From the NCBI GenBank assembly GCA_965112635.1, contig OZ218778.1:243666-307665 (forward strand): DNA of 64,000 nt. Reading direction: 5' to 3'. Within the stretch, counting starts at the first letter, position 1. Every line of letters starts with the position of its first letter. This DNA comes from an uncultured bacterium (lineage in GTDB: Bacteria > Oederibacteriota > Oederibacteriia > Oederibacteriales > Oederibacteriaceae). The notes beneath the pieces were generated by a model. That model was not told where the DNA came from, did not search any database, and worked only from the letters and a program-made list of their open reading frames with translations. A program made the position numbers and the translations under genes. This document shows, piece after piece, positions 2,246 to 64,000 of this stretch.

Positions 2246-3196
2246 TCAGCTTCCGTGCTCGTCCAGCCAGCGCAAGAGCTGGCTGATGCTTCCGGTCGCC
2301 AGGCTGATGTTGGTATCCGCCGCGCCGTAGTAAAGATTAATGGTATCCTTGTCGGCCCCCAGCGTGTATCCGCAGGGGAACACCACATTGGCCACATCGC
2401 CATGGCGCTCGTAGTCGGCCTCAGGACTAAAGATCCAGGAGTCGCCGCGCTTCAGGCATTGGTCCGGCTTGTCGAGCGCCAAGAGCGCCGCGCCCAGGCG
2501 GTAGATACACCCGGCCGCCGTTTGCCGGACCCCGTGATAAAGCATCAGCCAACCCCGGGAAGTCTCGATCAAAGGCGGAGAAAGCCCGATCTTGTTGGCG
2601 TCCCACCAGGCTCCTTTACGCGCCTTGAGGACGGGCTTATGGTCTCCCCAGTTCTGCAGGTCAGGCGAGTAGGAGATCCAGATGTCCGCCTGCGAGTAGG
2701 TCGTCGGGCGGTGGATGAGCGCGTAACTGCCGTTGATCCTGCGCGGCAGCAGAGTCGCGTCTTTGTCTTCCGGCTGCATGATCACGCCATAACGCTTGAA
2801 AACGCGGAAATCCTGCGTCTCGGCCAGTACCACGGCCGGGCCGCTTTTGCTGTAAGCGGTATACGCGACCATATAACTGCCGGACTCCTCAAAGTAGGTG
2901 ATCCGCGGGTCCTCGATCCCCCAAAGCTCCTCGGGATAATTCTGGGGATCAGGGCTGAGCGTGGGTTTTTGGTCAACGACCCACCCGTCTATCCCGTTCT
3001 TCGAGCGCGCCGCGCACAGGTGGGAATGCCCCCGCCGGTCCTCTACCCTGCAGAGCAGAAGCGTGGTGCCGTCCAAGAGCTTGATGGCGCCGGCGTTGAA
3101 CACCGTATGGGCCGGATACGGCCAGTCATCCGCCGTCAGGATTGGATTTTTTTCATGCCGTTTAAAAAGGACCTCATACCCGTGTTCCATGCTCAT
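2246..3196 (-). CDS. glycoside hydrolase family 130 protein (mannoside phosphorylase-like)
   Basis: 316-aa ORF with GH130-like signature (WGIEDPRITYFEESGSYMVAYTAYS); start overlaps stop of upstream gene (ATGA). Confidence 0.85.
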   Translation of the reverse strand: MSMEHGYEVLFKRHEKNPILTADDWPYPAHTVFNAGAIKLLDGTTLLLCRVEDRRGHSHLCAARSKNGIDGWVVDQKPTLSPDPQNYPEELWGIEDPRITYFEESGSYMVAYTAYSKSGPAVVLAETQDFRVFKRYGVIMQPEDKDATLLPRRINGSYALIHRPTTYSQADIWISYSPDLQNWGDHKPVLKARKGAWWDANKIGLSPPLIETSRGWLMLYHGVRQTAAGCIYRLGAALLALDKPDQCLKRGDSWIFSPEADYERHGDVANVVFPCGYTLGADKDTINLYYGAADTNISLATGSISQLLRWLDEHGS

Positions 3197-9304: not shown

Positions 9305-10229
9305 ATGTTCCCCTCCAAAGTCTATCTATTCATTTTCACACTGCTCCTATTATCCTTGACCAATCAGGGCCTGTGCCATGTGATACCCACTACTCCTAAT
9401 GATGACTGGAATCCAGTTTCCACCGGCCCCATCAACACCTGGACCGCTTCCCTGGAACCCGCCGGGGAACTTAACACTCAGCTCTTTGTTTTTTACACCA
9501 TGACCACGGGATTTTATGACGGGGCGGGAAAGTTCTGGTCATTGCCGGATAACACCACCAAGACCCAGTTCCAGGAGCAGCTGTTCCTCCAATATGCTAT
9601 CAACCCTATGTTTGAAATGGATGCCCAACTTTCCACTTTTCAAAATACGCTCAAGGTCGGCGACCAGACTTCCTATTATAGTGGCCCGGGTGACTCGATC
9701 TTCTTTTTGCGTTATGCCATCGCCACCGAAACTCATCCTTACCCCTTCCTGACCGGCGTACTCCAGCTCAGGGTTCCCTCGGGCAATTTTCTTAACCAAA
9801 CCTCCACCCTAAGGACTTCTGATCTCACCGGCACGGGAAGCGTGGGCAGTGGGTATGGGGTTGATGGCCACCAAAAAACTCAAACCATTCTTGCTGCATA
9901 CCGACCTCATCTACAATGTACCCTTACAGACCCAGACCAATATCACTTCTATTAACTACGGCGACTCCGTGAATTATGACCTGGGTGCCGAATACTTTAT
10001 GTCCTACGGATTTAACCTGTCCATGGAGATGAATTATATCTACGAGGCCACTGGCAGTATTTATGGCTTATTCACTCCCGGCGTTTCGGGTAACTACCTC
10101 ATGCTGACCCCGGGACTAGGCTGGGCCGTAAAAAATACCCAGTTACTACTCGGCTATCAATGGGGACTCTATGGCGTCAACACCGATGCCCTAAGTTCCT
10201 ATGTCTTTACCGCCTCGGCTCCGTTCTAA
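9305..10229 (+). pseudogene. putative outer-membrane beta-barrel protein, reading frame broken at an A6 run near 9874-9879
   Basis: signal peptide MFPSKVYLFIFTLLLLSLTNQG, C-terminal aromatic residue; two overlapping ORFs (9305-9955, 9849-10229) rejoin if A6 is read as A5. Confidence 0.5.
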
Positions 10230-10816: not shown

Positions 10817-13009
10817 ATGATGAAAAGCAATAAAACCAGGTTTTCCTTGGTCGGTTTTATTTTTTGTTCGCTATTGTTGTCCAACCCTAGCTGGGGGCAG
10901 GATGGCGCCAACAGCACCCTGGATGCATTGCGTCATGACAGCAGCCCTGCGGCAGTTACTAAGAGCGCTATACCTGTAAGTGTGACCAAGACCGCTGCAA
11001 CGGAGTCAACCGTGGCCGGTGAAGAAGTAGTGGTTAGAGGCAGGGCTGCCAACTTGCTGGGACTGGCAGACTCGGCCATGCAGGGCAGTGTCAGCCAGGA
11101 AGACCTGAGCCACCGTGCTTTGCTCAGGACGGGAGAAGTTATGGAAGCCGTACCCGGACTGCTCATCACACAGCACAGTGGTGACGGCAAAGCCAACCAG
11201 TATTTCAGCCGAGGTTTTAATCTTGATCACGGCACTGATTTTTCATTCAATGCTGATGATGTTCCTATTAACCTGCCCAGCAATGCCCATGGTCAAGGCT
11301 ATACAGACCTTAATTTCCTCATTCCCGATCTGGTTAAGGAAGTGAACTATTCCAAAGGACTTAATAGCGTTGAATACGGGGAATTTAATACCGCAGGCTC
11401 AGCCAATTTTGTTTATCCCAATACTCTGCCCCAAAATATCGCTTCTCTGACCATGGGAGAATGGGGATATCAGAGAGGGCTTTTGGCCGCATCCAACCCC
11501 TTGGGGTCAGGGAATTTGTTGTACGCCGTGGAAGTTTGCGGTTATGACGGTCCCTGGGATGTCCCGGAAGATAATAAAAAATATAATGGATTGCTTCGCT
11601 ACAGTTATGGAAACTCAGAGAGCAGGTGGGCGATCACGGCATCCCTTTATCAGGCTGCCTGGACCTCCACTGACCAGGTCCCGCAACGAGCGGTGGACGA
11701 GGGTCTGATCGATTTCTGGGGCAGCCTTGATCCGACTGATGGCGGTAAGACAAAACGCTACAGCGTTTGGGCAAGCTGGAATGGCCAATCCCAGGACTGC
11801 CAGTCCATGGTCATGGCCTATGAAACCTATTTTCATATGAATCTTTGGAGCAACTTCACCTATTTTACTGACGATCCTGTTCACGGCGACCAGTTTGAAC
11901 AGGAAGATGAGCGGTATATCACCGGCGCTAAAGCCAGGCAGATATACAACAACACTATCGCCGGGCTGGCCATGAAAAATGAGATCGGCGCGGATTTCCG
12001 CAATGATGACGTGCCCATCCTGGGCCTTTACGATACGGAGGCTCATATTCCGTGGCAAACCGTCCAGCTTAACCAGATGGTCCAAACCAGCGGAGCTCCC
12101 TATGCGGAAAATACCACTTATTGGACACCATGGCTGAGAAGTATTTTGGGATACCGTCACGACTTCTTCCATTTCAAAGTTAACGGTGCTACTCCTGCTA
12201 CCAGCGGAGAGGCTGATGCCAACATAGCCGAACCTAAGGTAGCCCTGGTGCTGCGGCCTTATGAAGGGCCGGTGGAGCTGTACGCCAACTATGGCTGGGG
12301 TTTTCACTCCAATGACGCGCGTATCATTGCGCCGGATGCTTTAAATCAGTTAAGCATTATGGGCAACAATGTGAACACCGCTCCCCTGGTCCACGCGGAG
12401 GGAGAAGAAGTAGGCGCCCGTTTCGGCTGGCAGAATTTATTTGAATCCACGGTATCTTTATGGCGCCTGCATCTGGATTCTGAATTGACTTTTGACGGAG
12501 ACGCGGCCGCTCCCAGTCCCAATGGGCCTTCTACGCGTAATGGGGTGGAATGGTCCAATTCCTTGAGGCCTAAACCCTTTTTCCTGGATTTCGACTACTC
12601 CTGGTGCCAGGCGCGGTTTGATCAGACTGCGTTAGATGATGATGGAGAGCACCCGGGTGAGTATGTGCCGGAGGCTCCGGTAAACATGGCTACAGCCACT
12701 TTAGGCACTGATCCCATAGAAGGCTGGTCTGCGGACTGTCGTTTGCGTTACTTTGGGGCAAGGCCGCTGGTACCGGATAATTCGGTGCAATCCAGCGACC
12801 TGACACTGGTAAGTCTTCGTGTCAGCCGTCAGCTGACGGAAAATCAATCCATTTTCTTCGATATTTTTAATCTTTTTAACCAGCGGGGTTATGATATTTC
12901 TTATTATTACGCCACAAGCGTACAGTCGGGAGCCCCGTCGATCCCGGACATAAACAGTAAACCCGCTGAGCCGCGGTCTTTGCGTGTGACCTGGCAGGAC
13001 CGTTTCTAA
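10817..13009 (+). CDS. TonB-dependent outer-membrane receptor, probably nickel/metal uptake by context
   Basis: signal peptide, plug-domain-like region, ~700-aa barrel ending in F; GAGGAGG RBS before ATG at 10817 (track ORF starts at 10763). Confidence 0.85.
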   Translation: MMKSNKTRFSLVGFIFCSLLLSNPSWGQDGANSTLDALRHDSSPAAVTKSAIPVSVTKTAATESTVAGEEVVVRGRAANLLGLADSAMQGSVSQEDLSHRALLRTGEVMEAVPGLLITQHSGDGKANQYFSRGFNLDHGTDFSFNADDVPINLPSNAHGQGYTDLNFLIPDLVKEVNYSKGLNSVEYGEFNTAGSANFVYPNTLPQNIASLTMGEWGYQRGLLAASNPLGSGNLLYAVEVCGYDGPWDVPEDNKKYNGLLRYSYGNSESRWAITASLYQAAWTSTDQVPQRAVDEGLIDFWGSLDPTDGGKTKRYSVWASWNGQSQDCQSMVMAYETYFHMNLWSNFTYFTDDPVHGDQFEQEDERYITGAKARQIYNNTIAGLAMKNEIGADFRNDDVPILGLYDTEAHIPWQTVQLNQMVQTSGAPYAENTTYWTPWLRSILGYRHDFFHFKVNGATPATSGEADANIAEPKVALVLRPYEGPVELYANYGWGFHSNDARIIAPDALNQLSIMGNNVNTAPLVHAEGEEVGARFGWQNLFESTVSLWRLHLDSELTFDGDAAAPSPNGPSTRNGVEWSNSLRPKPFFLDFDYSWCQARFDQTALDDDGEHPGEYVPEAPVNMATATLGTDPIEGWSADCRLRYFGARPLVPDNSVQSSDLTLVSLRVSRQLTENQSIFFDIFNLFNQRGYDISYYYATSVQSGAPSIPDINSKPAEPRSLRVTWQDRF

Positions 13010-13037
13010 CTAAATAATTAAGGAGGAAATTAACTAG

Positions 13038-13661
13038 ATGCAGACTATTTTGCAAAACTTGGCTCTGATCGGGGACGTCTGGGTCATCTACCTTTTGATC
13101 GCCGCAAGCCTGCTTTCTTTGGCGGTCATGGTGGAAAGATGGATGGTCTTCTCGCGTAACAGGGGAGATGTCACGGTTCTAATGGACGGATTAGGCGAAC
13201 GCCTGGAAAAAAAGGATATCAAGGGGGCTCTGGAATTTACCCGTGGTTTTCCCAATGTGGAGGGCAGGGTTGCCGTGGCGGGACTGGAGCATTTTTCCAA
13301 AGGCGCGGCTTCCGTGGAAGAGGCCATGTCCGCCAGGATCATCCGAGAGCGGAAGCATTTGGGGAAAAAACTGATCATCCTCAGCACGCTGGGCAATAAC
13401 GCGCCCTTTATCGGGTTGTTCGGGACCGTGCTCGGTATCATCAAAGCGTTCAACGACCTTGCGGTCAGCGGAAGCTCGGGGGTGTCCGTGGTCATGGCCG
13501 GCATTTCCTCGGCTCTGATCGCCACGGCATTCGGCATCGCGGTGGCTGTCCCCGCCGTCATAGCCAATAATTATTTCCGCAACCGGCTCAACGAGGTCAG
13601 ATCCAACGCCGAAGAGGTGTCCAAAATGCTTTTGCTTTACATCAAAGCGCAGGGAAAGTAG
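13038..13661 (+). CDS. exbB: MotA/TolQ/ExbB proton channel protein
   Basis: 207-aa membrane protein with ExbB/TolQ-like TM helices; AGGAGG RBS. Confidence 0.85.
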   Translation: MQTILQNLALIGDVWVIYLLIAASLLSLAVMVERWMVFSRNRGDVTVLMDGLGERLEKKDIKGALEFTRGFPNVEGRVAVAGLEHFSKGAASVEEAMSARIIRERKHLGKKLIILSTLGNNAPFIGLFGTVLGIIKAFNDLAVSGSSGVSVVMAGISSALIATAFGIAVAVPAVIANNYFRNRLNEVRSNAEEVSKMLLLYIKAQGK

Positions 13662-13670
13662 GAGGAAGCC

Positions 13671-14069
13671 GTGCAAAACTCTGAAGACGAACAGGAAATA
13701 GTCGGCGGCATCAATATCACGCCCATGGTGGATATCACCCTGGTACTGTTGATCATTTTCATGGTCACGGCGACCTTTATGGCGCAATCAGGCCTGAAAG
13801 TGAACCTTCCCAAGGCGGTCACTACCGAAGCGGCTTTCACCGCCAGCCTGACCGTAACCCTGGATTCCAAGGGTTATCTCTATCTGATGAAGTCACCCAT
13901 AGATGAGAAAGGTCTCAGGGCTGCCCTGCAGCACGAAGTCAGGCTCAATCCCGGCGTGAAAGTTACCATTGCCGCAGACAAGAAACAATATTATGAGCAG
14001 GTCATCCATATCCTGGACCTGGTCAAGCAGGCGGGTATCAGTAAAGTGGCGCTAGCCGCGGAAAGGTAG
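13671..14069 (+). CDS. exbD: ExbD/TolR biopolymer transport protein
   Basis: 132-aa ORF, single TM then periplasmic domain; GTG start with GGAGGA RBS. Confidence 0.85.
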   Translation: MQNSEDEQEIVGGINITPMVDITLVLLIIFMVTATFMAQSGLKVNLPKAVTTEAAFTASLTVTLDSKGYLYLMKSPIDEKGLRAALQHEVRLNPGVKVTIAADKKQYYEQVIHILDLVKQAGISKVALAAER

Positions 14070-14075
14070 GGCGGG

Positions 14076-14684
14076 TTGTTTTCTGTTTCCGGTGTGAATG
14101 GTGGGTGGCAGGACCCTGGAAGAAAAGATTTTTATCTGGGCGCCGTGGTGTCATTGGCCGTGCATCTGGCGCTGCTTGCCATTTTTTACTGTTTATTTTC
14201 CTACCTGAAGAACAGCGCGCCTGTGTCCATGGACCTGGACCTTTCCGTGGCCCCTGCTGTGGTTCCCTTGAGCCGTCCCGTGAAAAAAGAACATGTGGTT
14301 CCGCCCCAAGCCTGGGTGGCGCCTAAAGCTGGGATAGCTCCGACACCCCAAAATGTAAGTGAAACCGCCCAGCCGGTGGAAGAACAATATGTGCCCTCAG
14401 CCGTTACAGCGCTCAAGCCCCGCTGGTTAGACGGGTTTATTACCGATGAGGACTACCCGCCGCAGGCGCGGAGCAAAGGGGAAAAGGGAACGGTCAAGGC
14501 GGAAGTTTTTATTGATGCCTCAGGTATGGTCAAGGATCTGAAAATAGTCCAGGAAAGTTATCCTGCCTTGAATGAGGTGGTTTTGCACAAATTAAAGGAT
14601 GCCAAGTTTACGCCAGCCCGTGATGCCTCGGGAAAACCTGTGCCCTGCAAGATGTTGCTGCCCATTAAATTTGAATTGTATTAA
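14076..14684 (+). CDS. tonB: energy transducer TonB
   Basis: N-terminal TM, Pro-rich linker, TonB-like C-terminal domain; TTG/GTG start, exact start uncertain. Confidence 0.7.
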   Translation: MFSVSGVNGGWQDPGRKDFYLGAVVSLAVHLALLAIFYCLFSYLKNSAPVSMDLDLSVAPAVVPLSRPVKKEHVVPPQAWVAPKAGIAPTPQNVSETAQPVEEQYVPSAVTALKPRWLDGFITDEDYPPQARSKGEKGTVKAEVFIDASGMVKDLKIVQESYPALNEVVLHKLKDAKFTPARDASGKPVPCKMLLPIKFELY

Positions 14685-14766
14685 GATAGTTCTTGATTAT
14701 GTTCAGGAAAAAGCTATTACCAAAACAGTGAAGCCATCCTGCTGACTTTATGAAAGGATAAATTTT

Positions 14767-15786
14767 ATGCACATTCCTGACGGATATTTAGGACCGACCA
14801 CCTGCGGATTTTTTTATGTGGTCATGGTGCCGATCTGGATGACCGCTTCCCGCATGGTCAAAAAGACCCTCAAGGCCGGTCAGATCCCTTTTCTGGCCAT
14901 TGGCGCGGCTTTTAGCTTTGTCATTATGATGTTCAATGTCCCCATCCCCGCTGGCTCTACCGGCCACGCGGTAGGCGGCGCCTTGATCGCCATCCTGCTC
15001 GGACCCTGGGGCGCCTGTCTGACCGTTTCCGTAGCCTTGGTCATCCAGGCCTTTTTGTTCGGAGATGGCGGCCTGACCGCCATCGGCGCCAACTGCTTTA
15101 ATATGGCCGTCGTACTGCCCTTTTCTGCGTACCTTATTTACCGGCTCTTGTCCGGCTCCGCCCAAAAAAGTCCGACCAGAAATGTCTGGGCCGCGGGTAT
15201 CGCCGGCTACCTTTCCATCAATATCGCCGCTCTGTGCGCCGGTGTGGAGTTCGGCTTACAGCCTTTGCTCTACCATACCGCGGATGGACAGGCTCTTTAC
15301 TGCCCGTTCGGCTTGAGCGTTGCAGTGCCGGCCATGCTGGGCGGACACTTGCTGGTTTTTGGGTGGATAGAAGGCTTGGTCACCGCTCTGCTGGTCAAAT
15401 ATCTCCAACAGCACTCTCCTGAAATGCTCGCTCGCCCCGCCCTAAAAACTTCCACCAAATTATGGGCCTGTCTTGGCATCCTTGCGGTGCTGACCCCGTT
15501 AGGACTGCTCATCCCCGCCTGGCTCCACGGAGGAGACGCCTGGGGTGAGTGGGCGCCTGAAGAAATACAAAAAATCGCCGGCTATGTTCCCCAGGGCCTG
15601 CAAAAACTTTCCGCGCTCTGGAATGCCCCTTTGGCTGACTATGGTTTTAAAAGCTGGGAAGGAAAAGGATTGGGATACTCAAGCCTAGCCTATATAATAT
15701 CAGCCGTTCTAGGCGCAGCCCTGATCGCTTTTTGCGTCTGGTTATTGTTCAAATATCTCTTCCGGAAAGGCTTTTCCAAAAAATGA
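14767..15786 (+). CDS. nikMN: ECF-type Ni/Co transporter substrate-capture protein, fused NikMN (CbiMN-like)
   Basis: starts MHIPDGYL (CbiM/NikM hallmark); 339 aa with extra C-terminal TM region consistent with an N-component fusion. Confidence 0.85.
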   Translation: MHIPDGYLGPTTCGFFYVVMVPIWMTASRMVKKTLKAGQIPFLAIGAAFSFVIMMFNVPIPAGSTGHAVGGALIAILLGPWGACLTVSVALVIQAFLFGDGGLTAIGANCFNMAVVLPFSAYLIYRLLSGSAQKSPTRNVWAAGIAGYLSINIAALCAGVEFGLQPLLYHTADGQALYCPFGLSVAVPAMLGGHLLVFGWIEGLVTALLVKYLQQHSPEMLARPALKTSTKLWACLGILAVLTPLGLLIPAWLHGGDAWGEWAPEEIQKIAGYVPQGLQKLSALWNAPLADYGFKSWEGKGLGYSSLAYIISAVLGAALIAFCVWLLFKYLFRKGFSKK

Positions 15787-16589
15787 ATTTTGTGGAACGC
15801 ACTATCCTGGCTGCTCTTTCCCTGCTGAAAAATTCCATGTTCGCCGAGGATATCGCCCGCCAAAAAGGGCTCTTACAAACACTGGACCCACGGGTCAAGG
15901 CTGTTTCTTTGCTGGCCTTGATCGTGCTGGTCCTGTTCACCAAAAACTTATGGGTACTGGCTTGTATTTATGGTCTATGTCTGGTCCTGGCTATGCTATC
16001 GAGGATCCGCCTGCTGTTTTTCCTGGAGCGCACCTGGATCTTTATCCCCCTGTTTTCCCTGCTCATCGCCATACCTGCTCTTTTTAGTTTTGTATCACCG
16101 GGCCGGCCTTTGTTCTCCTGGGGGATATGGACCATCACCAGCCAGGGATTAGGCAGCGCCGTCATCTTTATCAGCCGCGTCATCACCTCGGTGTCCCTAG
16201 CCGTGCTTTTGAACCTGACCACCCGTCACCTGGAACTGCTCAAGGTCCTTAGGATATTCGGGATCCCGCAAATGTTCGTCATGATCCTGTCCATGAGCTA
16301 CCGTTATATTTTTCTTTTTGTGGAGATCATGGAAAACACCCACCGGGCCGTGCAGAGCCGCGTCGGCTCGGCCATTCATTATAAAAAAGGTCAGCACCTG
16401 GTGGCCTGGAGCATGGCTGGCCTGTGGAGCCGTTCAGTCGGCCTGCAGGAACAGGTGCACCACGCCATGCTCTCCCGCGGATTTCAAGGCGAGCCGGTCC
16501 TCCTGCACCGCATGAGCACAAGGTTCAGGGACTGGGCCTGGCTGGCCTGCGTTCTCGTCCTGGTAGTCTGTTTGTGGGGAGCGTCCTGA
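15783..16589 (+). CDS. nikQ: ECF transporter transmembrane (T) component NikQ/CbiQ
   Basis: polytopic membrane protein; ATG overlaps nikMN stop (ATGA). Confidence 0.8.
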   Translation: MNFVERTILAALSLLKNSMFAEDIARQKGLLQTLDPRVKAVSLLALIVLVLFTKNLWVLACIYGLCLVLAMLSRIRLLFFLERTWIFIPLFSLLIAIPALFSFVSPGRPLFSWGIWTITSQGLGSAVIFISRVITSVSLAVLLNLTTRHLELLKVLRIFGIPQMFVMILSMSYRYIFLFVEIMENTHRAVQSRVGSAIHYKKGQHLVAWSMAGLWSRSVGLQEQVHHAMLSRGFQGEPVLLHRMSTRFRDWAWLACVLVLVVCLWGAS

Positions 16590-17401
16590 TGAAACCTATC
16601 TTTGAGTTTCAAAAAGTCAGCTATGCTTACCTGGGTAAATTCCCGGCCCTGCGGGACATCACTCTAACTATCCCGGCTGGAAAAATGGTCACCCTGGTCG
16701 GCGCCAACGGTTCGGGCAAATCCACGCTCCTGCAGATGATGGACGGTCTTTTGTTCCCGGACAGCGGGACCATAGTTTTTGATGGCAGACAGCTGGCCAG
16801 CGCTGAACTGGAAAAACAGGACTTTTCCAAGACCTTTAGACAAAAGGTAGGACTGGTCTTCCAGAACCCCGACATCCAGCTTTTTTGTCCTACGGTCCGC
16901 GAGGATATTATTTTTGGTCCGCTCCAGCTGGGGATAGACGAAAAAATAGTGATGAACCGATTGGAAGAGTTGGCCGTAGCCCTTAAACTCACGCCTCTCC
17001 TGGACCGTGCCCCGCATCAGTTGAGCATCGGCGAAAAACGCAAGGTGGCCATAGCCTCCACCCTGGCCATAGACCCTGAGGTTTTGCTTTTGGATGAACC
17101 CACAGCCGGCCTGGACCCCATGACCACGGCTTCCATCCTGGAGATCCTGCTCACAGCCAATCAGTCAGGCAAGACCATTATTACAGCCACCCACGACCTG
17201 CATATTTTAGAGGAGATCGCGGACACAGTGTTCGTTTTCGGGCAGGATAAGACCATCGTCGCGGAAAGCACCCCCGAATCCATACTCAAGGATACGGACC
17301 TCCTGCAAGCGAACAACCTGGTGCATTTTCATCCGCACAGCCATAAAGGCAGGATGCACCAGCATCCCCACCAGCACCCGGACCACCACGAAGGAAGCTA
17401 A
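16589..17401 (+). CDS. nikO: ECF transporter ATPase NikO/CbiO with His-rich C-terminal tail
   Basis: Walker A GANGSGKST, signature LSIGEKRK, Walker B LLLDEPTAGLD; tail HFHPHSHKGRMHQHPHQHPDHHEGS; start overlaps nikQ stop. Confidence 0.85.
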   Translation: MKPIFEFQKVSYAYLGKFPALRDITLTIPAGKMVTLVGANGSGKSTLLQMMDGLLFPDSGTIVFDGRQLASAELEKQDFSKTFRQKVGLVFQNPDIQLFCPTVREDIIFGPLQLGIDEKIVMNRLEELAVALKLTPLLDRAPHQLSIGEKRKVAIASTLAIDPEVLLLDEPTAGLDPMTTASILEILLTANQSGKTIITATHDLHILEEIADTVFVFGQDKTIVAESTPESILKDTDLLQANNLVHFHPHSHKGRMHQHPHQHPDHHEGS

Positions 17402-34204: not shown

Positions 34205-35140
34205 ACATGTCTAGCGTCTTGAACACTCCCAGCGTTGAGGTCAACGGCCTTACGGTCAAATTCGGTAAATTCACGGCTGTGGACAACATCTCCTTCAGGG
34301 TCGCCCAGGGAGAGATTTTTGGGTTTTTGGGGGCTAACGGCGCCGGCAAGACCACGACCATCCGTGTCTTGTGCGGACTCCTCATGCCCACCAGCGGTAG
34401 CGTGTCCGTGGCCGGCCTGGAGGTCAAGCAAAGCCTGCAGGCAATCAAACAAAAGGTCGGCTACATGTCCCAAAAATTTACCCTGTACCAGGACATGACC
34501 GTGTGGAGAAAACCTGGCCTTTACCGCGGCCCTGCGCAAAATTCCCCAGGAAGTCTTTCAACAGCGTAAAAAAGAACTGCTGGAGTTCATTGGCTTCCAT
34601 GAGCCGGAAAAAACTTTTGTCAAAGACCTGGCCGGGGGCCTCAAACAGGAAGTGTCCCTGACCGCGGCCATGCTGCACGACCCTGAGATCGTGTTTTTGG
34701 ACGAACCCACAGCCGGGGTGACCCCGGCCAGCCGCCAGCGCTTTTGGGACCTCATCCGCCAACTCTCCGCCAAGGGCAAAACCGTTTTTGTGACCACCCA
34801 TTACATGGATGAAGCTGAAAACTGCGGCCGTATCGCTCTCATGCGGGCCGGCCAGATCATAGCCCTGGATACCCCGGAAAACCTTAAAAACACGCGTTTT
34901 CCTTATCCTCTTTATGAGATCACCCCCAAACCAGGGGCAGCCCCGGACTGGCTTGACCGTCTGCAAAAGGACAAGCGCCTGGATTTGTCACCTTACGGTC
35001 TGCGTTACCATTGCGCAGTCAAAGATAAAGCAGCTTGGCCGGAAATTTCCACATTTTTAAGCGAGCAAGCCGCTTCCCATCCTATCAAACCGTCCCTGGA
35101 GGATGTTTTTATCCAGCTTGTGGAAGGAGTGGACCGATGA
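34201..35140 (+). pseudogene. second ABC transporter ATP-binding protein, frame broken near 34507-34513
   Basis: Walker A GANGAGKTT in first ORF; Walker B VFLDEPT in ORF 34652-35140; removing one base at tgg-a-gaaaac restores TVWENLAFTAAL. Confidence 0.7.
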
Positions 35141-42849: not shown

Positions 42850-45022
42850 GAACTCCTCCTTGTAGGATCAAAATTCTTTCCGCAGTTTCCGTGCCGCAAA
42901 CTTCTCCCGGTGCCGGCTGCGGCCTGACTGCGCTGAGATCCGGTAAAGCTAAATAAAACCGGGAACCCTTGTCTTTGCCCTTGCTCTCGCACCACAACCG
43001 GCCTTTCTGCATATCCGCTATTTTCTTGGAAAGCGCCAGGCCCAGCCCCGTGCCTCCATACTGGCGGTTGAGGCCGCCCTGGACCTGTTCAAATTCATTA
43101 AATATCCTGAGCTTGTCTTTTTCTTCGATACCGATGCCCGTATCCTCAACGCAGATGCTTATCTCCCCGTTGTTTCCGCCCGCGGTCAGGCGGATCTCCC
43201 CGCCTTCCGGGGTGAATTTGACCGCGTTGGAGAGCAGGTTATTGACCACCTGCTTTATCATGCGTTCATCCGCATAAACAACGCCCGCTTCCCTGGCCAC
43301 CTGCAAAGAAACTTTGATCCTCTTTTTCTGGATCTTATCCGTCACCATCATCAGACTGGACTCCAGGAGCTTTCTGAGATCCACCTCGCTCGCCTCCGAG
43401 GTCACTTTGCCGGTCTCTATCTTGTTCAGGTCCAGAATATCGTTGATCAGGGAAAGCAGATGCTTGCCGCTATCGTAGATATTTAGGGCATACTCGGACT
43501 GCTTAGCGGTCAGCGGCCCGACATCGCCCGACTTCATCATGTCCGAAAACCCGATGATGGCATTAAGGGGAGTTCGTAATTCATGGGACATCGTGGCCAG
43601 GAAAGCCGACTTGGCCCGGTTGGCGGATTCGGCCGTTTCACGGCCCAGATTGGCCTCTTCAATTTTTTTGCTCAAGGTGATATCCCTGACCGTGGCCTGC
43701 AGGAATTGCTTACCCTCCAGTTCCATGCGGGTCAGAAGTACGGTAGCGGGGAAATCCTCGCCGTTTATCCGTTTGTGTGTCCACTCAAATAGGTTATTTC
43801 CCTCCCGCATCGCTTTTTCGATCATTTCCTTGGCCTTTTCGCCGGATGGCCGGCCGTCCGGCTGTTTTTCCGGGGATAACTTACCCGGTCTGTAGGAATT
43901 AAAATCCTTTGAGTCCTTTGCTCCGAACATCCTGACCGTTTCCGGATTTCCTGAGGTGAAATTCCAGTCAGGCGGCTTCAGGGTCATCAGGGCGTCGCTG
44001 GAATATTCAAATAGATAACGGTATCTTTCTTCGCTTTTTCTCAGGGATTCTTCCATGGTTCGGCGGGAGGTGGCGTCACGGAATATCCCCATCATATACT
44101 GCTTGCCTTCCAGTTCGATTTGGTGGGAACTGATATCCGCGTAAATAAGGGAGCCATCCTTTCGTTTAAAAGGCACATCTGTTTCCATCAAAACCTGGTT
44201 TTTGGGGCCTTTATCAAATCTTTCCGCGGCACTCCCAAAAGCCTGGGGAGGATGGATATCCCTGACGCCCATGCGAGTCAATTCCTCATGCCCGTAGGCC
44301 AGGAGTTGGCCCATGCTCTGGTTCGCGTCAAATATTTTCATGGTTTGGGGGTCCACCAGCATGATGCCGTCCGAGGCATGGTCAAAAATGGCCTTGAACT
44401 TGCCTTCCCCCAGGCTCAAGGCTTTGCTGGTCCTGTTCCGCTCGGTGAGGACCATCCTTTGGGCGATAAGAAAACCAATAAAGACGAAGAACCCGACCAC
44501 CCCAAAGACATTGTTCCGGGCCTGGATGTTTTTTTGCATCGTGGAAACGAACAGCGACCTGATAGTGTTCCTCAAGGTGAAAGCATTTTTGAATACTTCA
44601 TCGGCCTGCCGGGGACCCGGTTGTTCCAAAGTCCCTGGGGTGGCTGCGCCATATTGGACCGGCGTATCCTGGATCCACAGGGGGGACATACCGGACAGGG
44701 TGGCCTCAAAGTTTTTTTGGACTTTTTGCAGGAGCGCCTTGTCCTGGGCGCTGGTAAAACTTTTGAGGGCTGTAGCCAGCAGGCCCTCTAAAGTGCTGGT
44801 TTTTTTATCCCACTCGGTTTTTAGTTGCTGGCTGGGATACAGCAGGTACCTGGCCCTCAGGACGATCCTGGCCGAAACCGTGTTGCTCATTTCATCGGCG
44901 AGCTGGAGGTTCCGGCTGGCCAGGGTAATATCCCTCAGGGTCCAGGCCAGGGCCAGGAGCATGAGCACGACCCCTCCCGCATATATCCATCCATTGTCTT
45001 TCATCCATTTATCCATCCTCAT
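42809..45022 (-). CDS. membrane-anchored PAS sensor histidine kinase
   Basis: N-terminal TM, PAS domains, H-box SHELRTPLNAI, HATPase motifs. Confidence 0.8.
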   Translation of the reverse strand: MRMDKWMKDNGWIYAGGVVLMLLALAWTLRDITLASRNLQLADEMSNTVSARIVLRARYLLYPSQQLKTEWDKKTSTLEGLLATALKSFTSAQDKALLQKVQKNFEATLSGMSPLWIQDTPVQYGAATPGTLEQPGPRQADEVFKNAFTLRNTIRSLFVSTMQKNIQARNNVFGVVGFFVFIGFLIAQRMVLTERNRTSKALSLGEGKFKAIFDHASDGIMLVDPQTMKIFDANQSMGQLLAYGHEELTRMGVRDIHPPQAFGSAAERFDKGPKNQVLMETDVPFKRKDGSLIYADISSHQIELEGKQYMMGIFRDATSRRTMEESLRKSEERYRYLFEYSSDALMTLKPPDWNFTSGNPETVRMFGAKDSKDFNSYRPGKLSPEKQPDGRPSGEKAKEMIEKAMREGNNLFEWTHKRINGEDFPATVLLTRMELEGKQFLQATVRDITLSKKIEEANLGRETAESANRAKSAFLATMSHELRTPLNAIIGFSDMMKSGDVGPLTAKQSEYALNIYDSGKHLLSLINDILDLNKIETGKVTSEASEVDLRKLLESSLMMVTDKIQKKRIKVSLQVAREAGVVYADERMIKQVVNNLLSNAVKFTPEGGEIRLTAGGNNGEISICVEDTGIGIEEKDKLRIFNEFEQVQGGLNRQYGGTGLGLALSKKIADMQKGRLWCESKGKDKGSRFYLALPDLSAVRPQPAPGEVCGTETAERILILQGGVHVHAKQNSIDGRG

Positions 45023-51559: not shown

Positions 51560-52655
51560 TTAATCTTTTAAAGTGAAATAAAAAACTGTGCCCTTTCCAT
51601 ATTCGGACTCATACCATATCTTCCCCCCATTACGCTCCACGATACGCTTGCAAACAGCCAGGCCCACCCCGTTACCGGGGTACTTGACCCCTGCCAACCG
51701 CTGAAATAGGGAAAAAACCCTATCCTTATACTGGGGTTCTATTCCGATACCATTGTCCTTGATGGAAAAAACAACCTCTTTTCCCTTTTTCCCCGCAGAA
51801 AGATGAACACACGGTGCCTGTTCTCCGCAAAACTTGATGGAGTTGGCAATGAGATTCTGCAAAACCTGAAGAAGCTGGGAGGGGTCGGCCATGACCGCTG
51901 GCAAAGGATCTGTGGGTAATGACCGCTTTATTCTCTAATATGGCCAATTTCAGATTGGCCAGAGCGCCTTTAAGGACCTCCTCGGTATCCACCAGCTCCA
52001 GGGGTTTAGCCTGGGACTCTACCCGTGAGAATAATAACAGACCGTCAATGAGTCCCTGCATGCGGGTAGCTCCGTCTACGGCGAAATTGATGAATTCATC
52101 AGCATCCTGGTCCAGTTTGCCTTTATAGCGTTGCTCTATCAATTGAAGATAACTTACGACCATCCGGAGCGGCTCCTGCAGGTCGTGGGAGGCGATATTG
52201 GCGAACTGCTGGAGGTCTTCATTGCTGCTTTTTAGTTTTAAGGCATATTTCCTAATCTCCTCTTCCTCTTTGTGCCTGGTGATGTCCTCGATGGCCAGAA
52301 GAATGATATGCTCTTTTCCTAATGCTCTCTGAATTTGCCTTGCATTCAAAAGTAAGATGCGCCGGCCAATGGTGTCAAAATCGTGCTCCACCTCAAAATT
52401 GTCAAAGGAGGTCTTTTGAGGAAGGATGTTTTCCAGCAGTTCCCTTAGCTGGGGAATATTCCACTGTTTGTTACCCAGGTCATAGATTAACTGCCCCACC
52501 GTCTCTGCCGGGTTTACCTTAAAAAATTCATAGAAGGAACGGCTGGCGGAGATGACCCTGAGGTCCTGGTCCAGAACGACCAAGGGTTCGCGAATGGTAT
52601 TGATAATGCTTTCGGCGTATTCCTGGGATTCTACTGCTGTTTTTTCGCTAAACAT
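51560..52655 (-). pseudogene. PAS sensor histidine kinase, frame broken near 51905-51925 between HisKA and HATPase
   Basis: ORF 51726-52655 carries PAS and H-box (SHDLQEPLR); ORF 51560-51904 carries N-box/HATPase (QVLQNLIANSIKF, DNGIGI) in another frame. Confidence 0.65.
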
Positions 52656-52712: not shown

Positions 52713-52895
52713 TTACCTATGGAGTGAAAATACTACTGAGCTTGTTTTTGCAGGAGTTCGGATTGTAGGATGGTGATGTCTGTGGGTGGTGCGGCTCGAG
52801 GTGAAATTATTCTTGCAGGTATGGTTGAGTCCCTCAAAAATACTTCCCTTGAGGCTGGGACATTTCATATCACAGGTACAGTTATCTTTGGTCAT
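52713..52895 (-). pseudogene. internally deleted remnant of an FNR-like regulator gene (paralog of 56524-57219)
   Basis: N-terminal 27 codons (MTKDNCTCDMKCPSLKGSIFEGLNHTC) match the intact paralog; last ~12 codons in another frame (ILQSELLQKQAQ, stop at 52734) match its C-terminus. Confidence 0.55.
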
Positions 52896-52901
52896 TTTCT
52901 A

Positions 52902-52915
52902 CCCCCCCCCCCCCC
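52902..52915. repeat. C14 homopolymer (G14 on the minus strand) followed by A7, 6 nt upstream of the remnant ATG
   Basis: read directly. Confidence 0.9.
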
Positions 52916-53129: not shown

Positions 53130-54710
53130 TTTCTGTAAAGGGGGAAGGGGGATTGTTAAACAGCTGGCTGCTCAGGAATACAGGGCTTTTTGGACCGCCG
53201 CCAGCATGGTTTCGGATTCGTAAGGTTTGGCTAGGAACTGGAAACCTTGGTTGGTGAGTTCGTTTTGCTCCACGATCTTATCCAGATAACCGCTGGTCAC
53301 CAGCACCCGGATGTTAGGATTCTCTTTTCGGATTTCCTTGATAAGTGCATTCCCATCCATGCCGGGCAGAATGATGTCGGTAAAAAGCAATTTAAACCCT
53401 TTTTTCTCTTCCTTGAACGCCCTGAGGGCGTCTTCTGCATTCTCAGCGGGAAAAACAGTATAACCTTGTTCTTCGAGTATCTTGGTGGCCAGGGCCAGAT
53501 TGTCCGGCTGGTCCTCCACCAAAAGTATTTTTTCACCAGCGCCCCGGCCGTGCTCCAGGGCTATTTTCTTTTGTAGCTTGGGCTCCTGGTCTTTGCGTTC
53601 ATCCCTGGGGAACCATATCCTGAACTCTGTGCCTTTCCCAGGCTGACTGGACACATTGATCCACCCGTTATGCTGTTTCACGATGCCATAGGTGACGGAC
53701 AGGCCCAGGCCCGTGCCCTTGCCCCTGCTCTTGGTGGTAAAAAAGGGGTCAAATATTTTGGTCAGGGTCATGAAATTCATTCCTATACCGTTGTCCTTGA
53801 CTGTCAGGACTATAAAATCCCCGGGACGGGCTTCACGGATAACCTGCGCTTCTAACTGGCCAAGGGACACTGCCTGGGTCTTGATAAGCAGTTGGCCTCC
53901 CTGAGGCATGGCGTCGCGGGCGTTGACGCACAGGTTCATCAGGACCTGCCCTAACTGGTTCTGGTCCGCATATATTCTTTCTTGTCCTTTACTCAAGGCC
54001 AGCGTAAGCACGACGTGTTCACCCACCGCCTCTTTGAGTATTTTTTCCATACCCAGGACCACTTCATTCAGGGATAAGGACTGGAGGGACTGGTTCTGTT
54101 TGCGGCTGAAGGCCAGCAATTGTCCGGTCAGGGAGGCGGCTTTTATGCCCGCGCCTTTTATCTCCTCCAGGTAGTTCCTGGCGGCAGTCCAGTCATTGGC
54201 TTTCATCAGGGCCAAGTCAGAATAGCCGATGATGACGTTGAGCAGGTTGTTGAAATCATGGGCAATGCCTCCGGCCAATTCCCCGACAGAGGCCATTTTC
54301 TGGGTCTGGACCAAATCGCTCTGCAGGCGCCGGAATTCGGTGATATCGGTGGCGATGGTGGACCCGCCGACGACCTGGCCGTTCTTGTCGTAGATAGGCG
54401 AAAGGGCCAGCATCACCTGGACCCGGGTCCCATTTTTATGCAGGCGCTCTGTCTCAAAGCGCAGTATGGGTTGGCCAAGGTTAAGTTTTTTGGTGATCTC
54501 CAGCATCTCTTCCCTGCGTTCCGGAGGGACCAATTTTTCCGCGGACATGCCGATAGCCTCCTGGACGGAATACCCATATATCTTTTCCGCGCCCTTGTTC
54601 CAGCTCAAAATTATTTGATGATGGTCCCTGCTGAATATCGCGTCACCTGAGGATTCCGCGATGGTGGCCAGCAAGCGGTTTTTTTGTTCGGCTTCCCGGC
54701 GCTGGGTAAT
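53130..54710. repeat. second copy of the paralogous hybrid-kinase segment (see 48370-49950); bounds approximate
   Basis: same shared protein stretches and 3' flank. Confidence 0.6.
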
Positions 54711-56507
54711 ATCTTGGACATAGTTCACAAAATAAAGGATAACTCCCGTGGAGGGCTTGCGCACTGCAGCCACAGACACATTGGCCCAAATAATCCGGCC
54801 GTCCTTGCGTAAATACCGCTTTTCTAGGATGGCATTGTCAGCCTCACCCTCCGTCATGCTCCTCATGGCTTTTAACCCTATTTCATAATCTTCCGGATGA
54901 GTGATGCTGTTAAAGGTTTTGCCTAAAAGCTCATTCTCACCAAACCCCAGCATTTCGTTCATGGCCCGGTTGACCCTGAGATACCGGCCTTCAATATCCA
55001 CTAGGCTGACCCCGACCACGGCGTTTTCAAAAGAGGTCCTGAAAAGCTCCTCGCTCTCGGCCAAGGCCTTTTCAGCTTGCCGGCGTTCAGTCACATCGCT
55101 CATAAAATTGAGCGTAGCCAGCCGGCCCTGCCATTCGATCCTGACGGCGTTTATCTGCACCCAGCGCAGCTGGCCCGAAGCGGTCAGGATGCGGAACTCA
55201 TATATTTTTTCCAGGTCCTCCCCAGCCAGCCGTCTCAGGTGGTTTGCCGCGACCATGGCCCGGTCTTCCGGATAGATGAAATCAGTGAAAGGATGGCGGG
55301 ATATCTCTTCGGGTGGATATCCCAATTCCCGGACTGTGGCCTTGTTCACGAAAACCAGTTTGTTGTCCTGGGCCACCATGATCATTTCCTGGGAATTTTC
55401 CACGACCTGGCGGTATCTTTTCTCGCTCTCCCGCAGTGCTTCTGAAGCTTTCCTGAACTCGGTAATATCCCTTGCCGAGCTGAGCGTCCCGGTGATGCGC
55501 CCCTCCTCATCATGGACAAGGGAGTTATGAAAAGCCAATAAACGCCTGTCTCCTTGTTTGGTGACCACAAAATTCTCAAAATATTCAACTGGCTTGATAG
55601 CGCCGGAGATGATCTGGTCAAAAACAGAATGGACAGCCTGATACTCCTCGGGAGTAACGCAGGTCTTGAACCAGTCCTTGCCCAGGAGCTCTCCCTCCTG
55701 GTAACCGAGGAGTTCGTGACCCTTACGGTTGAGGAGCACGACCTGGCCCTGGGTGTCCAGCACCACCATCAATACCTGGGCAACTTCAAGATATTCGGAG
55801 GCTTTTCTTCTTTCGGCCCTTAAATACGCCACATCCTTCTTGCGCAGGGTCACATCGTTGGCCATGGATATATTTAACTTTCGCCCATCCGCGGTCCGGC
55901 CCAAGGCAGTAGATTGAAATTCCCAAACCCGGGTCTTCCCGCTTTTCGTCTTGACTGTGAACTCTCCCTCATTGTACCGGATGCCATCGTCCAGAGAAAA
56001 AAACAGATTTCTCCGGGACTGGACTTTGTCCTTTTTCAGCCCATAGGCAAGCTCAAGCCAAGCATCTAGTGTAGGTATGTCCGCCCGGCTATATCCGGTC
56101 AGTTCTTCCCAAACCTGGTTGACCCGGATGACCTCGCCATCCTCCGCGTAGATCATGATGGGAAACGGTGACAGCTGTATCACTTTTTCCCGCTGTTCCA
56201 GGCTGAGCCTCTCGGCTTTTTCTATGTGCTGGAGCAAAACGACCACGATAAACATGGAAAGGGATAAGGCAAAACGCCTCCCGGTCTCCAGAGGGTCAAT
56301 CGTGCTGGGAACATGGTTTACGAGCATCTGATACAGGGGGGAAAACGCAGGTAAAAGATCAAAACAAGGGCCAAACCCATGAAGGACCAGGAGACTTTCC
56401 TTTTGGACTTGGGCAGGCCCAGGAGGACCATCACCATGGCTATGAGGGCAATGATGGCCGAGGCCACATTGACCACGGTCAAAAACATGGCTGTCCCTCC
56501 TTTTCAA
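53172..56507 (-). CDS. hybrid multi-PAS sensor histidine kinase with C-terminal receiver; N-terminus uncertain
   Basis: multiple PAS, H-box [10 protein letters not shown], HATPase, receiver [10 protein letters not shown]; a 56-aa 2-TM ORF with strong RBS (56318-56488) lies in a neighbouring frame across a C6 run. Confidence 0.8.
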
Positions 56508-56523
56508 TGTATGGTGACGATGA

Positions 56524-57219
56524 TTACTGGGCTTCCTTTTGCAGGAGTTCGGACTGCAGGACTGTGATCCTTTTGCCTACCAGGGAAATGATCTTTTTTT
56601 TCTCCAGTACTTTCAGGGCCCGGATGGCGGTCTCCTGGGCCGTGTCCGCCAGCTCGGCCAGCTCGGTCCGGGAAAGCTGGATGTTGAGCGAACCGTCCTT
56701 GGCCGGAGCATAGTCCCGGGCCAGCTTGCACAGCACCTCGGCCACCCGGTTCTTGACCGGCTTTTGGACCGCGCTTTCCAGCCGGGACAGGGTGTCGCCC
56801 ACCTCGGCTCCCATCCGGCTCATGATGTTCTCTCCCAGCCGGGGATCCAGCCCCAAGGCCGCGAATAAAATGGAGCGTTCAATGAAGCAGACCTGGGTTT
56901 CCTCCAGGGTTTCCGCAGAGGTGAAATTGACCTTGCCCGACATCAGCGCGGACACACCCAGCGCATCACACGGTCCGGCGATCTGGACGATCTGCTCGCG
57001 GTCCAGGCGGCCGGTTTTGTAGAGTTTTACTTTTCCGGAACGGATGTGATAAATGCCGTAGGGTTTATTGCCCTCATAAAAAAGGTTTTGTTTGGGTTTG
57101 TAGGTGTTGGTGGTGCGGCCCTTGGCGATATAATCCAGGCATTCATGGTTAAGCCCCTCGAATATACTTCCCTTGTAGCCGGGACATTTGGCGTCACAGG
57201 TCCAGTTTTGATTGACCAT
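56524..57219 (-). CDS. Crp/Fnr-family regulator with FNR-like cysteine pattern
   Basis: cNMP-binding-like fold plus C-terminal HTH (LSRTELAELADTAQETAIRALK); N-terminal C8-x3-C12-x14-C27 plus internal Cys (GPCDALG); AAGGAAG RBS before ATG 57219. Confidence 0.8.
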   Translation of the reverse strand: MVNQNWTCDAKCPGYKGSIFEGLNHECLDYIAKGRTTNTYKPKQNLFYEGNKPYGIYHIRSGKVKLYKTGRLDREQIVQIAGPCDALGVSALMSGKVNFTSAETLEETQVCFIERSILFAALGLDPRLGENIMSRMGAEVGDTLSRLESAVQKPVKNRVAEVLCKLARDYAPAKDGSLNIQLSRTELAELADTAQETAIRALKVLEKKKIISLVGKRITVLQSELLQKEAQ

Positions 57220-57302: not shown

Positions 57303-57698
57303 CTAATTCGATCCGGGCAGGAGGTCATTGAGGGTCTTGAGAAACTGAGTTATATCCATGGGTTTAGAGATATAGCCGTCAAAGGAGTACGATTGGACCT
57401 CTTCCCGGTAATGGGGATTGCCCATGCCTGTGAAACTGACGACCTTGACGGCTTTGAAAGCCTCATTCTGCCGGATCATTTTGAAAATCTCAAATCCGTC
57501 AATGTCAGGAAGCCCGATATCCAGCAGGACAATATGTGGAACTATGGTGTCCAGGATTTCTATGGCCTCCTCACCTGTCGCGGCCTGATGGACCTGCCAG
57601 CCGTCCATTTTTAGGATCTCCACGGATATCTTCAGATTGGTCGGATGGTCCTCTACGACCAAAATGATCTTGGTTTTTACCTTTTCGCCATTAGCCAA
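57303..57698 (-). CDS. single-domain response regulator (receiver only)
   Basis: 131-aa CheY-like receiver (ILVVEDHPTN, LLDIGLPDIDG, YISKP). Confidence 0.8.
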   Translation of the reverse strand: MANGEKVKTKIILVVEDHPTNLKISVEILKMDGWQVHQAATGEEAIEILDTIVPHIVLLDIGLPDIDGFEIFKMIRQNEAFKAVKVVSFTGMGNPHYREEVQSYSFDGYISKPMDITQFLKTLNDLLPGSN

Positions 57699-63124: not shown

Positions 63125-64000
63125 TTAAGGTTTAAGCTCTGACTCTAAAGTCAGACCCAAGGCTTTATCAAAACTTACTTTGGCTTGGGCGATATTGAGT
63201 TTATCGGAAAGCTGGCTCTGTTGGGCTGAAGTATAACCTGTTTCCGCCTGCTCAAAATCAAGGTACTGGGCCAGGCCTGATTCATACAAGGCCCGGACCG
63301 TCTTGAACCGCTCTTCCCCAGATTGGACGAGCAAATTGGTGTAAACAGTATGCTGCTGATCGGATACATAGGTGATCCAGGCCTGATAAAGCTGCAATTG
63401 CAAAGACCCGACAAGGTCATCCAGGTTATCTTTACTGGCCAGCCACTGATGGGTGGCCTGCGTGATGGAAGCCTCCTGGCCAAATCCGGAGAATAGGCTG
63501 AAACCTGTGGAAAGACCCACGCTTCCAGGTGGACTGGGTGGGAGGCCAGGAACTCCCATCAGAATAATTGTAGCCGCTGTTTAAATTAAGGGAAGGATAC
63601 CGCGTGGACAAACTGCCGTTCATTGCCGCCTCGGCGGCTTCCACGATAGCCTTTTGCAGCATCAAAGCAGGATTCTCCTCGTACATCCTTTCATACCACG
63701 GCTCGATCTCCTCGGGCGGTTCCGGGGTCTCTAGGTTTCCGGACACCTTGATAGTTTCCTTGATATCTCGCGGTTTACGTCCCAATAAGTAGGCCAAATT
63801 TTTTTGCTGTGAATCCAGATCTTCCTGGGACTGCTTGGTTTGCCATGCTATTTGCGCTTCTTCAGCTTCGGCTTGGAGATAAGCCCAGTGCGCTTCACGG
63901 CCGGATTTATACTGCATCTGGATATAACGGGTATCCTGGTTCAATCTCTCTTTGATGGATTCTAAAAGAACCAGGTTCAACTGGTCATAGATGATCCTGT
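63125..64000 (-). pseudogene. TolC-family outer-membrane factor, partial (5' end beyond window), frame broken near 63510-63560
   Basis: two overlapping ORFs (63125-63559, 63432-63980) both with outer-membrane-factor-like sequence; upstream frame still open at 64000. Confidence 0.65.

Follow-up and report, generated by a model that had tools for sequence, protein, structure and literature searches.

Organization of the locus

The window, as the whole stretch of DNA under analysis is called here, comprises 64,000 nucleotides of a 2,876,006-bp NCBI contig. On its minus strand lies a histidine kinase gene that belongs to a signaling gene cluster, together with genes for a HEAT/TPR protein, a GGDEF protein, a Crp/Fnr-type regulator, a single-domain response regulator and downstream kinase paralogs. 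The coordinates of these and of the other features described below are given in Table 1.

Two reading frames meet at the beginning of the kinase gene. The upstream frame encodes a product of 56 amino acids (P0156) and is preceded by a Shine-Dalgarno sequence, AAAGGAGGG, which is separated from the ATG at 56488-56486 by a 6-nt spacer, ACAGCC. The kinase frame extends without interruption from 56507 to 53172, and the first ATG in it is found at 56327 (MLVNHVPS...), with no Shine-Dalgarno element in the sequence upstream of it, and the part of the frame lying 5' of this codon translates to a Gly/Pro/His-rich sequence that does not resemble a protein. Both starts had been described in these terms by the initial annotation, which saw a strong ribosome binding site and two predicted helices in the small ORF and a weak internal ATG in the kinase frame. 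The sequence and the hydropathy profile bear out this description.

The small ORF contains a run of cytosines close to its 3' end. The run is exactly six bases long in the window, as had been reported. Addition of one C to the run produces a single ORF of 1105 residues. To make the same 1105-residue product from the C6 template, a ribosome would need to shift by -1. The last five residues of the 56-residue ORF, CIRCS, and the stop codon after them are out-of-frame read-through.

Table 1. Features of the kinase locus and of the other sites discussed in the text. Positions refer to the window.
Feature	Position	Strand	Remarks
Shine-Dalgarno sequence AAAGGAGGG	56503-56495	minus	read directly from the sequence
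56-aa ORF, probably artefactual	56488-56318	minus	stop TAA at 56320-56318; residues 1-51 correspond to the N-terminus of the restored protein (TM1 and TM2)
C6 run, probable under-call site	56341-56336	minus	GGGGGG on the plus strand; C7 in the other two assemblies
Internal ATG, Met55 of the restored protein	56325-56327	minus	gene callers' start for the 1051-aa P0007
Restored gene of a putative membrane-anchored hybrid sensor histidine kinase, 1105 aa	53172-56488	minus	C7 reconstruction, equal to P0154
TM1, residues ~2-25	56414-56485	minus	Kyte-Doolittle hydropathy
TM2, residues ~34-50	56339-56389	minus	hydropathy; aligned to TM2 of P0052
TM3, residues ~73-89	56223-56273	minus	hydropathy; aligned to TM3 of P0052
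Five tandem PAS domains, residues ~100-721	54327-56192	minus	Pfam PAS, PAS_3, PAS_4, PAS_9, PAS_8
HisKA dimerization/phospho-acceptor domain, residues 736-799	54093-54284	minus	Pfam PF00512, above the gathering score
HATPase_c catalytic domain, residues 842-963	53601-53966	minus	Pfam PF02518, E = 2e-24, above the gathering score
C-terminal receiver, residues 988-1100	53190-53528	minus	Pfam PF00072, E = 1.1e-20
PAS-HisKA-HATPase_c kinase, split	51560-52655	minus	309-aa and 114-aa ORFs owing to the extra base at 51911
Extra base, CACAGATCC vs CACGATCC	51911		sequences on the minus strand; neighboring kinase split, 364 aa intact in the ENA contig
Extra A, GGAAGCGTGGG vs GGAGCGTGGG	63524		sequences on the minus strand; outer-membrane efflux (OEP) gene broken, 438 aa intact in the ENA contig
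Extra A, same 10-mer context GGAAGCGTGGG	9838		307-aa gene cut to 216 aa
Extra T, CCGTGTGGAG vs CCGTGGGAG	34504		310-aa ABC ATPase split; intact in Logan contig L083
ABC-transporter ATPase, split in the window and in the ENA contig	34207-35140	plus	120-aa and 162-aa pieces
Crp/Fnr-type regulator	56524-57219		
Single-domain response regulator	57303-57698		
Crp/Fnr-type regulator relic	52713-52895	minus	paralog of the Crp gene at 56524-57219
REC-PAS-HisKA-HATPase_c-REC kinase, 890 aa	48409-51081	minus	downstream paralog

Domain structure and topology of the restored kinase

The fused protein has three hydrophobic segments at its N-terminus. TM1 and TM2 are separated by a positively charged loop, PKSKRK, which directly precedes TM2; TM3 is followed by charged residues and leads into the PAS array. 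There is no Pfam match in residues 1-100 of the fused protein. Each of the five PAS models listed in Table 1 matches four or five stretches of the fused protein. The HisKA domain contains an H-box (AHDFNN), and the receiver, with 74.3 bits, lies above the cut-off of 30.2.

The distribution of hydrophobic segments and charges, read by the positive-inside rule, suggests that the N-terminus is outside the cell and the C-terminus is inside. The chain would enter the cell with the KSKRK loop, form an outer loop of some 22 residues, and return through TM3. Such an arrangement would place the PAS domains, HisKA, HATPase_c and the receiver in the cytoplasm. The signaling function of the 1105-residue kinase, including its autophosphorylation and phosphotransfer activity, is putative.

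Homologs across the frame junction

A HMMER scan was carried out with the first 218 residues of the fused protein against 1.84 billion representative sequences. Residues 55-218 of the query are matched by P0007 (1051 amino acids) from its own residue 1. This protein is identical to the kinase of the window called from ATG 56327. The query is matched from its residue 4 to its residue 217 by residues 4-221 of P0052, a 437-residue sensor protein in which three TM helices and a PAS domain precede an HD-GYP output domain. A cluster mate of P0052, P0155, bears the source name 'PAS domain S-box-containing protein/putative nucleotidyltransferase with HDIG domain'.

The alignment with P0052 spans the frame junction. 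In BLASTP, residues 1-87 of the fused N-terminus align with P0052 free of gaps, and the two sequences read YLRFPPLYQML (query) and VRRFIPLYTML (P0052) at the junction. The E-value of 1e-43 over residues 1-218 becomes 7e-10 when the TM region alone is considered. The C7 reconstruction fits P0052 gap-free; a C4 reconstruction is one residue short. Because P0052 runs through the C7 junction in this way, the ancestral state is a single ORF. Residues 1-218, that is, the three-TM module and the adjoining PAS domain, recur in P0052 at 34% identity over about 220 residues.

The 1.84 billion representatives searched with HMMER include no standalone protein that corresponds to the N-terminal stretch, which is found only as the N-terminus of P0052. 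The three-TM module thus seems to be rare, as judged from the one such representative in this collection. When residues 1-218 of the fusion were used in a word-indexed protein search, three matches were obtained, which are all confined to PAS and of which none covers residues 1-70. In the contig index, neither the 56-residue ORF nor P0007 gave a record on exact look-up. When one genome per species was scanned with the full protein, no ortholog was found among the at least 80 loci listed, all of which are at the level of paralogs (28-44% identity) and start at residue 72 or later; the genome of the window itself is not among the loci listed. The matches of the early searches were likewise PAS or kinase paralogs, with identities of 28-49%. 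A scan of JGI metagenomes for the context of the C run, with C6 to C8 allowed, gave 0 matches. An Rfam scan over the window identified no RNA family and hence flagged no riboswitch or recoding element.

The C run in other assemblies of the same strain

P0007 and P0156 are both encoded by the contig from which the window is taken. The cluster of P0156 has this one member only. The 90% cluster of P0007 has one other member, the 1105-residue P0154, which is encoded on a 387,426-bp contig (ENA/NCBI). P0154 is identical to the C7 reconstruction residue for residue. The earlier suggestion that one additional C would create a three-TM sensor kinase is thereby matched by a protein that is already present in public data.

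The P0154 locus (ENA ERZ25039471, contig_13894; L081) is syntenic with the window. Over the 20,831 nt from position 43170 to position 64000, the two sequences have 0 mismatches and differ by three single-base indels, one of which is C6 versus C7. The 1105-residue gene is intact in this locus and in a further one, L084. A 6,183-bp Logan contig (L085), a direct assembly of run ERR11523656, differs from the window at a single place, where it has G7 on the plus strand, and its gene call extends from the ATG that follows the Shine-Dalgarno sequence through the C run to the end of the contig (747 amino acids). A literature search for the run and analysis accessions gave no paper. The gene calls in L081, L084 and L085 all begin at ATG 56488. 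The reading as a homopolymer under-call, which the initial annotation had offered as one of two options, is thus favored by two further assemblies of this strain, which have a C7 run in DNA that is otherwise 100% identical. The pattern is real in the sequence as given, and the C6 length itself very probably is not.

Other single-base indels in the window

About 60 kb of the window have been compared with the ENA contig. There are 0 substitutions and four single-base indels in this comparison, and a fifth indel is common to both sequences and becomes apparent against Logan data. All five break genes in the window, and each of these genes is intact elsewhere. Between positions 3037 and 23661 the window departs from the ENA contig solely in the extra A at 9838. 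Between 21294 and 42661 the two are 100% identical, and both have the extra T at 34504 when compared with Logan contig L083. Positions 12129-16885 are identical to Logan contig L087.

As the ABC-transporter ATPase gene is split in the ENA long contig and intact in L083, the ENA contig also contains uncorrected indels. Because the insertion at 34504 is common to the window and the ENA contig, these two are perhaps not fully independent. It is the Logan contig spanning the C run that serves as the independent witness for its length.

The four insertions (9838, 34504, 51911 and 63524) all lie at or beside the motif CGTGGG. As CGTGGG takes up far less than 1% of all positions, the coincidence is not due to chance. 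Both true GGAGCGTGGG sites, at 9838 and 63524, read GGAAGCGTGGG in the window, in which no GGAGCGTGGG is left. The window also has 31 intact CGTGGG sites that are unaffected. The insertions look like a systematic consensus error. Its motif specificity suggests a possible link to DNA modification, and perhaps the organism has a methyltransferase that recognizes CGTGGG. Nanopore consensus sequences are known to accumulate errors at methylation motifs and, after these, at homopolymers (PMC6591954). Two other papers (PMC9262707, PMC12007338) appear to deal with errors that fragment genes in assemblies of long reads. The error pattern suggests a nanopore-type long-read assembly as the source of the window.

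The break at 51911 had been considered as a case of real pseudogenization. This reading was dropped, as the gene is intact in the ENA contig on otherwise identical DNA. Frameshifts were also considered for further ORFs that overlap in the window (CbiM/CbiQ/ABC, MacB/HlyD and ParE/Phd), which are intact, separate genes.

Paralogs and relics in the neighborhood

The 890-residue kinase gene downstream matches positions 53172-54750, which encode the C-terminal half of the 1105-residue kinase, along 1.6 kb in which about 74% of the DNA is identical. It appears to be a recent paralog, and tandem duplication seems to have enlarged the cluster. The Crp relic combines some 100 nt from the 5' end of a Crp gene (76% identical) with 44 nt from its 3' end (84% identical), the two being joined by an internal deletion of about 536 nt. 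Since the relic is identical in the ENA contig, its decay is genuine, and it represents a duplicate of the Crp-kinase module.

An intergenic tract of 14 cytosines is found just upstream of the relic, at 52902-52915 of the plus strand (poly-G on the minus strand), with T7 in front of it. In the ENA contig its length is unchanged. This tract could be prone to slippage, or its true length could be uncertain in long-read data.

Interpretation of the C run

By combining the comparison of assemblies with the homology across the junction, it is possible to describe how the two ORFs would have arisen. Very probably, the assembly of the window under-called a run of seven cytosines as six, and the real locus would be one gene. 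The reading of C7 as C6 would break the frame within this gene. Translation from the strong-RBS ATG 56488 would give the 1105-residue hybrid sensor histidine kinase, with three membrane crossings at the N-terminus ahead of its cytoplasmic five PAS domains, HisKA, HATPase_c and receiver. The 56-residue 'small membrane protein' would then represent TM1 and TM2 of the kinase followed by five out-of-frame residues, and the 1051-residue 'kinase with a weak ATG' would be the remainder of the same protein. The window copy, which is one base short in the C run, reads as 56 plus 1051 amino acids.

The run length does differ among assemblies, C6 in one and C7 in others, and poly-C/G tracts are classic slippage sites. 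A real C6 allele might thus be present in the strain or in a subpopulation of it, as a fresh inactivating frameshift (an incipient pseudogene) or as a product of slipped-strand phase variation, by which a three-TM membrane-anchored kinase would alternate with a truncated form and a two-TM peptide. That genes do decay in this region is evident from the nearby Crp relic, which is the same in both assemblies. Such an allele is nevertheless very unlikely. The five frameshifting indels are accompanied by 0 substitutions in about 60 kb, and four non-homopolymer insertions at one motif would make an unnatural mutational spectrum. Seven bases are short for a contingency tract, and the other seven C/G runs of six or more bases in the window, C14 included, have the same lengths in the ENA contig. 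C6 is therefore better regarded as an error than as a rare real allele, as far as the sequences allow a judgment. It is very unlikely that C6 occurs in part of the population and that slippage at the poly-C tract works as a switch by which the multi-PAS hybrid kinase is separated from its two N-terminal helices. If this were true, the kinase would alternate between two states, a sensor with its full membrane anchor and a shortened form that is translated poorly.

The small ORF seems translatable, with its strong Shine-Dalgarno sequence, clean ATG and two hydrophobic helices, and it had been proposed as a separately translated small membrane protein, with the kinase starting at ATG 56327. The homologs do not sustain this proposal. 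The 56-residue product has no standalone relatives and forms a singleton cluster limited to the contig of the window, its sole homolog is the N-terminus of a longer sensor rather than a separate small ORF, and ATG 56327 lacks a Shine-Dalgarno sequence. The C6 template might also be recoded, with the fusion made by a programmed -1 ribosomal frameshift, for which a P-site tRNA-Pro could conceivably re-pair after a -1 step on CCC CCC, or by slippage of transcription at the C run. The sequence in frame 0 (U UUC.. / UUU CCC CCC UGU), however, is not an X XXY YYZ heptamer, and the candidate U CCC CCC does not conform to X XX. Known transcriptional slippage occurs on A/T runs of nine or more, and C6 is far below this. 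The frame change is not conserved, as the assemblies of the same strain and P0052 have the region in a single frame. Recoding is also unneeded, since, with C7, the fusion is already encoded as one frame in the same strain. Two functional genes, or recoding on a C6 template, are thus hardly credible.

Consequences for the genome and for protein collections

A single gene with an under-called C run involves no new biology, and the practical value of the finding lies in quality control. In this assembly a single-base indel breaks a gene about once every 12 kb (five in about 60 kb). Where split genes, small upstream ORFs or frameshifts are encountered elsewhere in this genome, a consensus error should be suspected first. 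The public protein collection holds the artefacts P0156 (56 amino acids) and P0007 (1051 amino acids) beside the correct P0154 (1105 amino acids).

Comparison with known systems

The locus resembles the fragmentation of genes by indels in long-read assemblies. It has a single-base deletion in a homopolymer and other single-base indels, and there are no substitutions relative to assemblies of the same strain. The insertions gather at one short motif (cf. PMC6591954), and each error gives rise to two called ORFs. As a difference, the CGTGGG motif is not tied to a known methyltransferase here, and the sequencing platform is deduced from the pattern of errors.

A likeness to phase-variable contingency loci also exists, in that a poly-C tract lies in the 5' part of the coding region and its length decides whether the full-length product is made. 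In contrast to these loci, the tract has seven bases, and its length differs between assemblies and not between reads or strains. It is also surrounded by indel errors of this assembly that lie outside homopolymers.

What the gene really encodes is a hybrid kinase of ordinary design, anchored in the membrane and carrying several PAS domains, and the feature itself is not new. The restored protein shares with other multi-PAS hybrid kinases the N-terminal TM helices, five PAS domains, a HisKA domain with its H-box, HATPase_c and a receiver. It differs from them in its three-TM module, which belongs to no Pfam family and has one detectable family of relatives, P0052/P0155, where the same module is joined to an HD-GYP output domain instead of a kinase.
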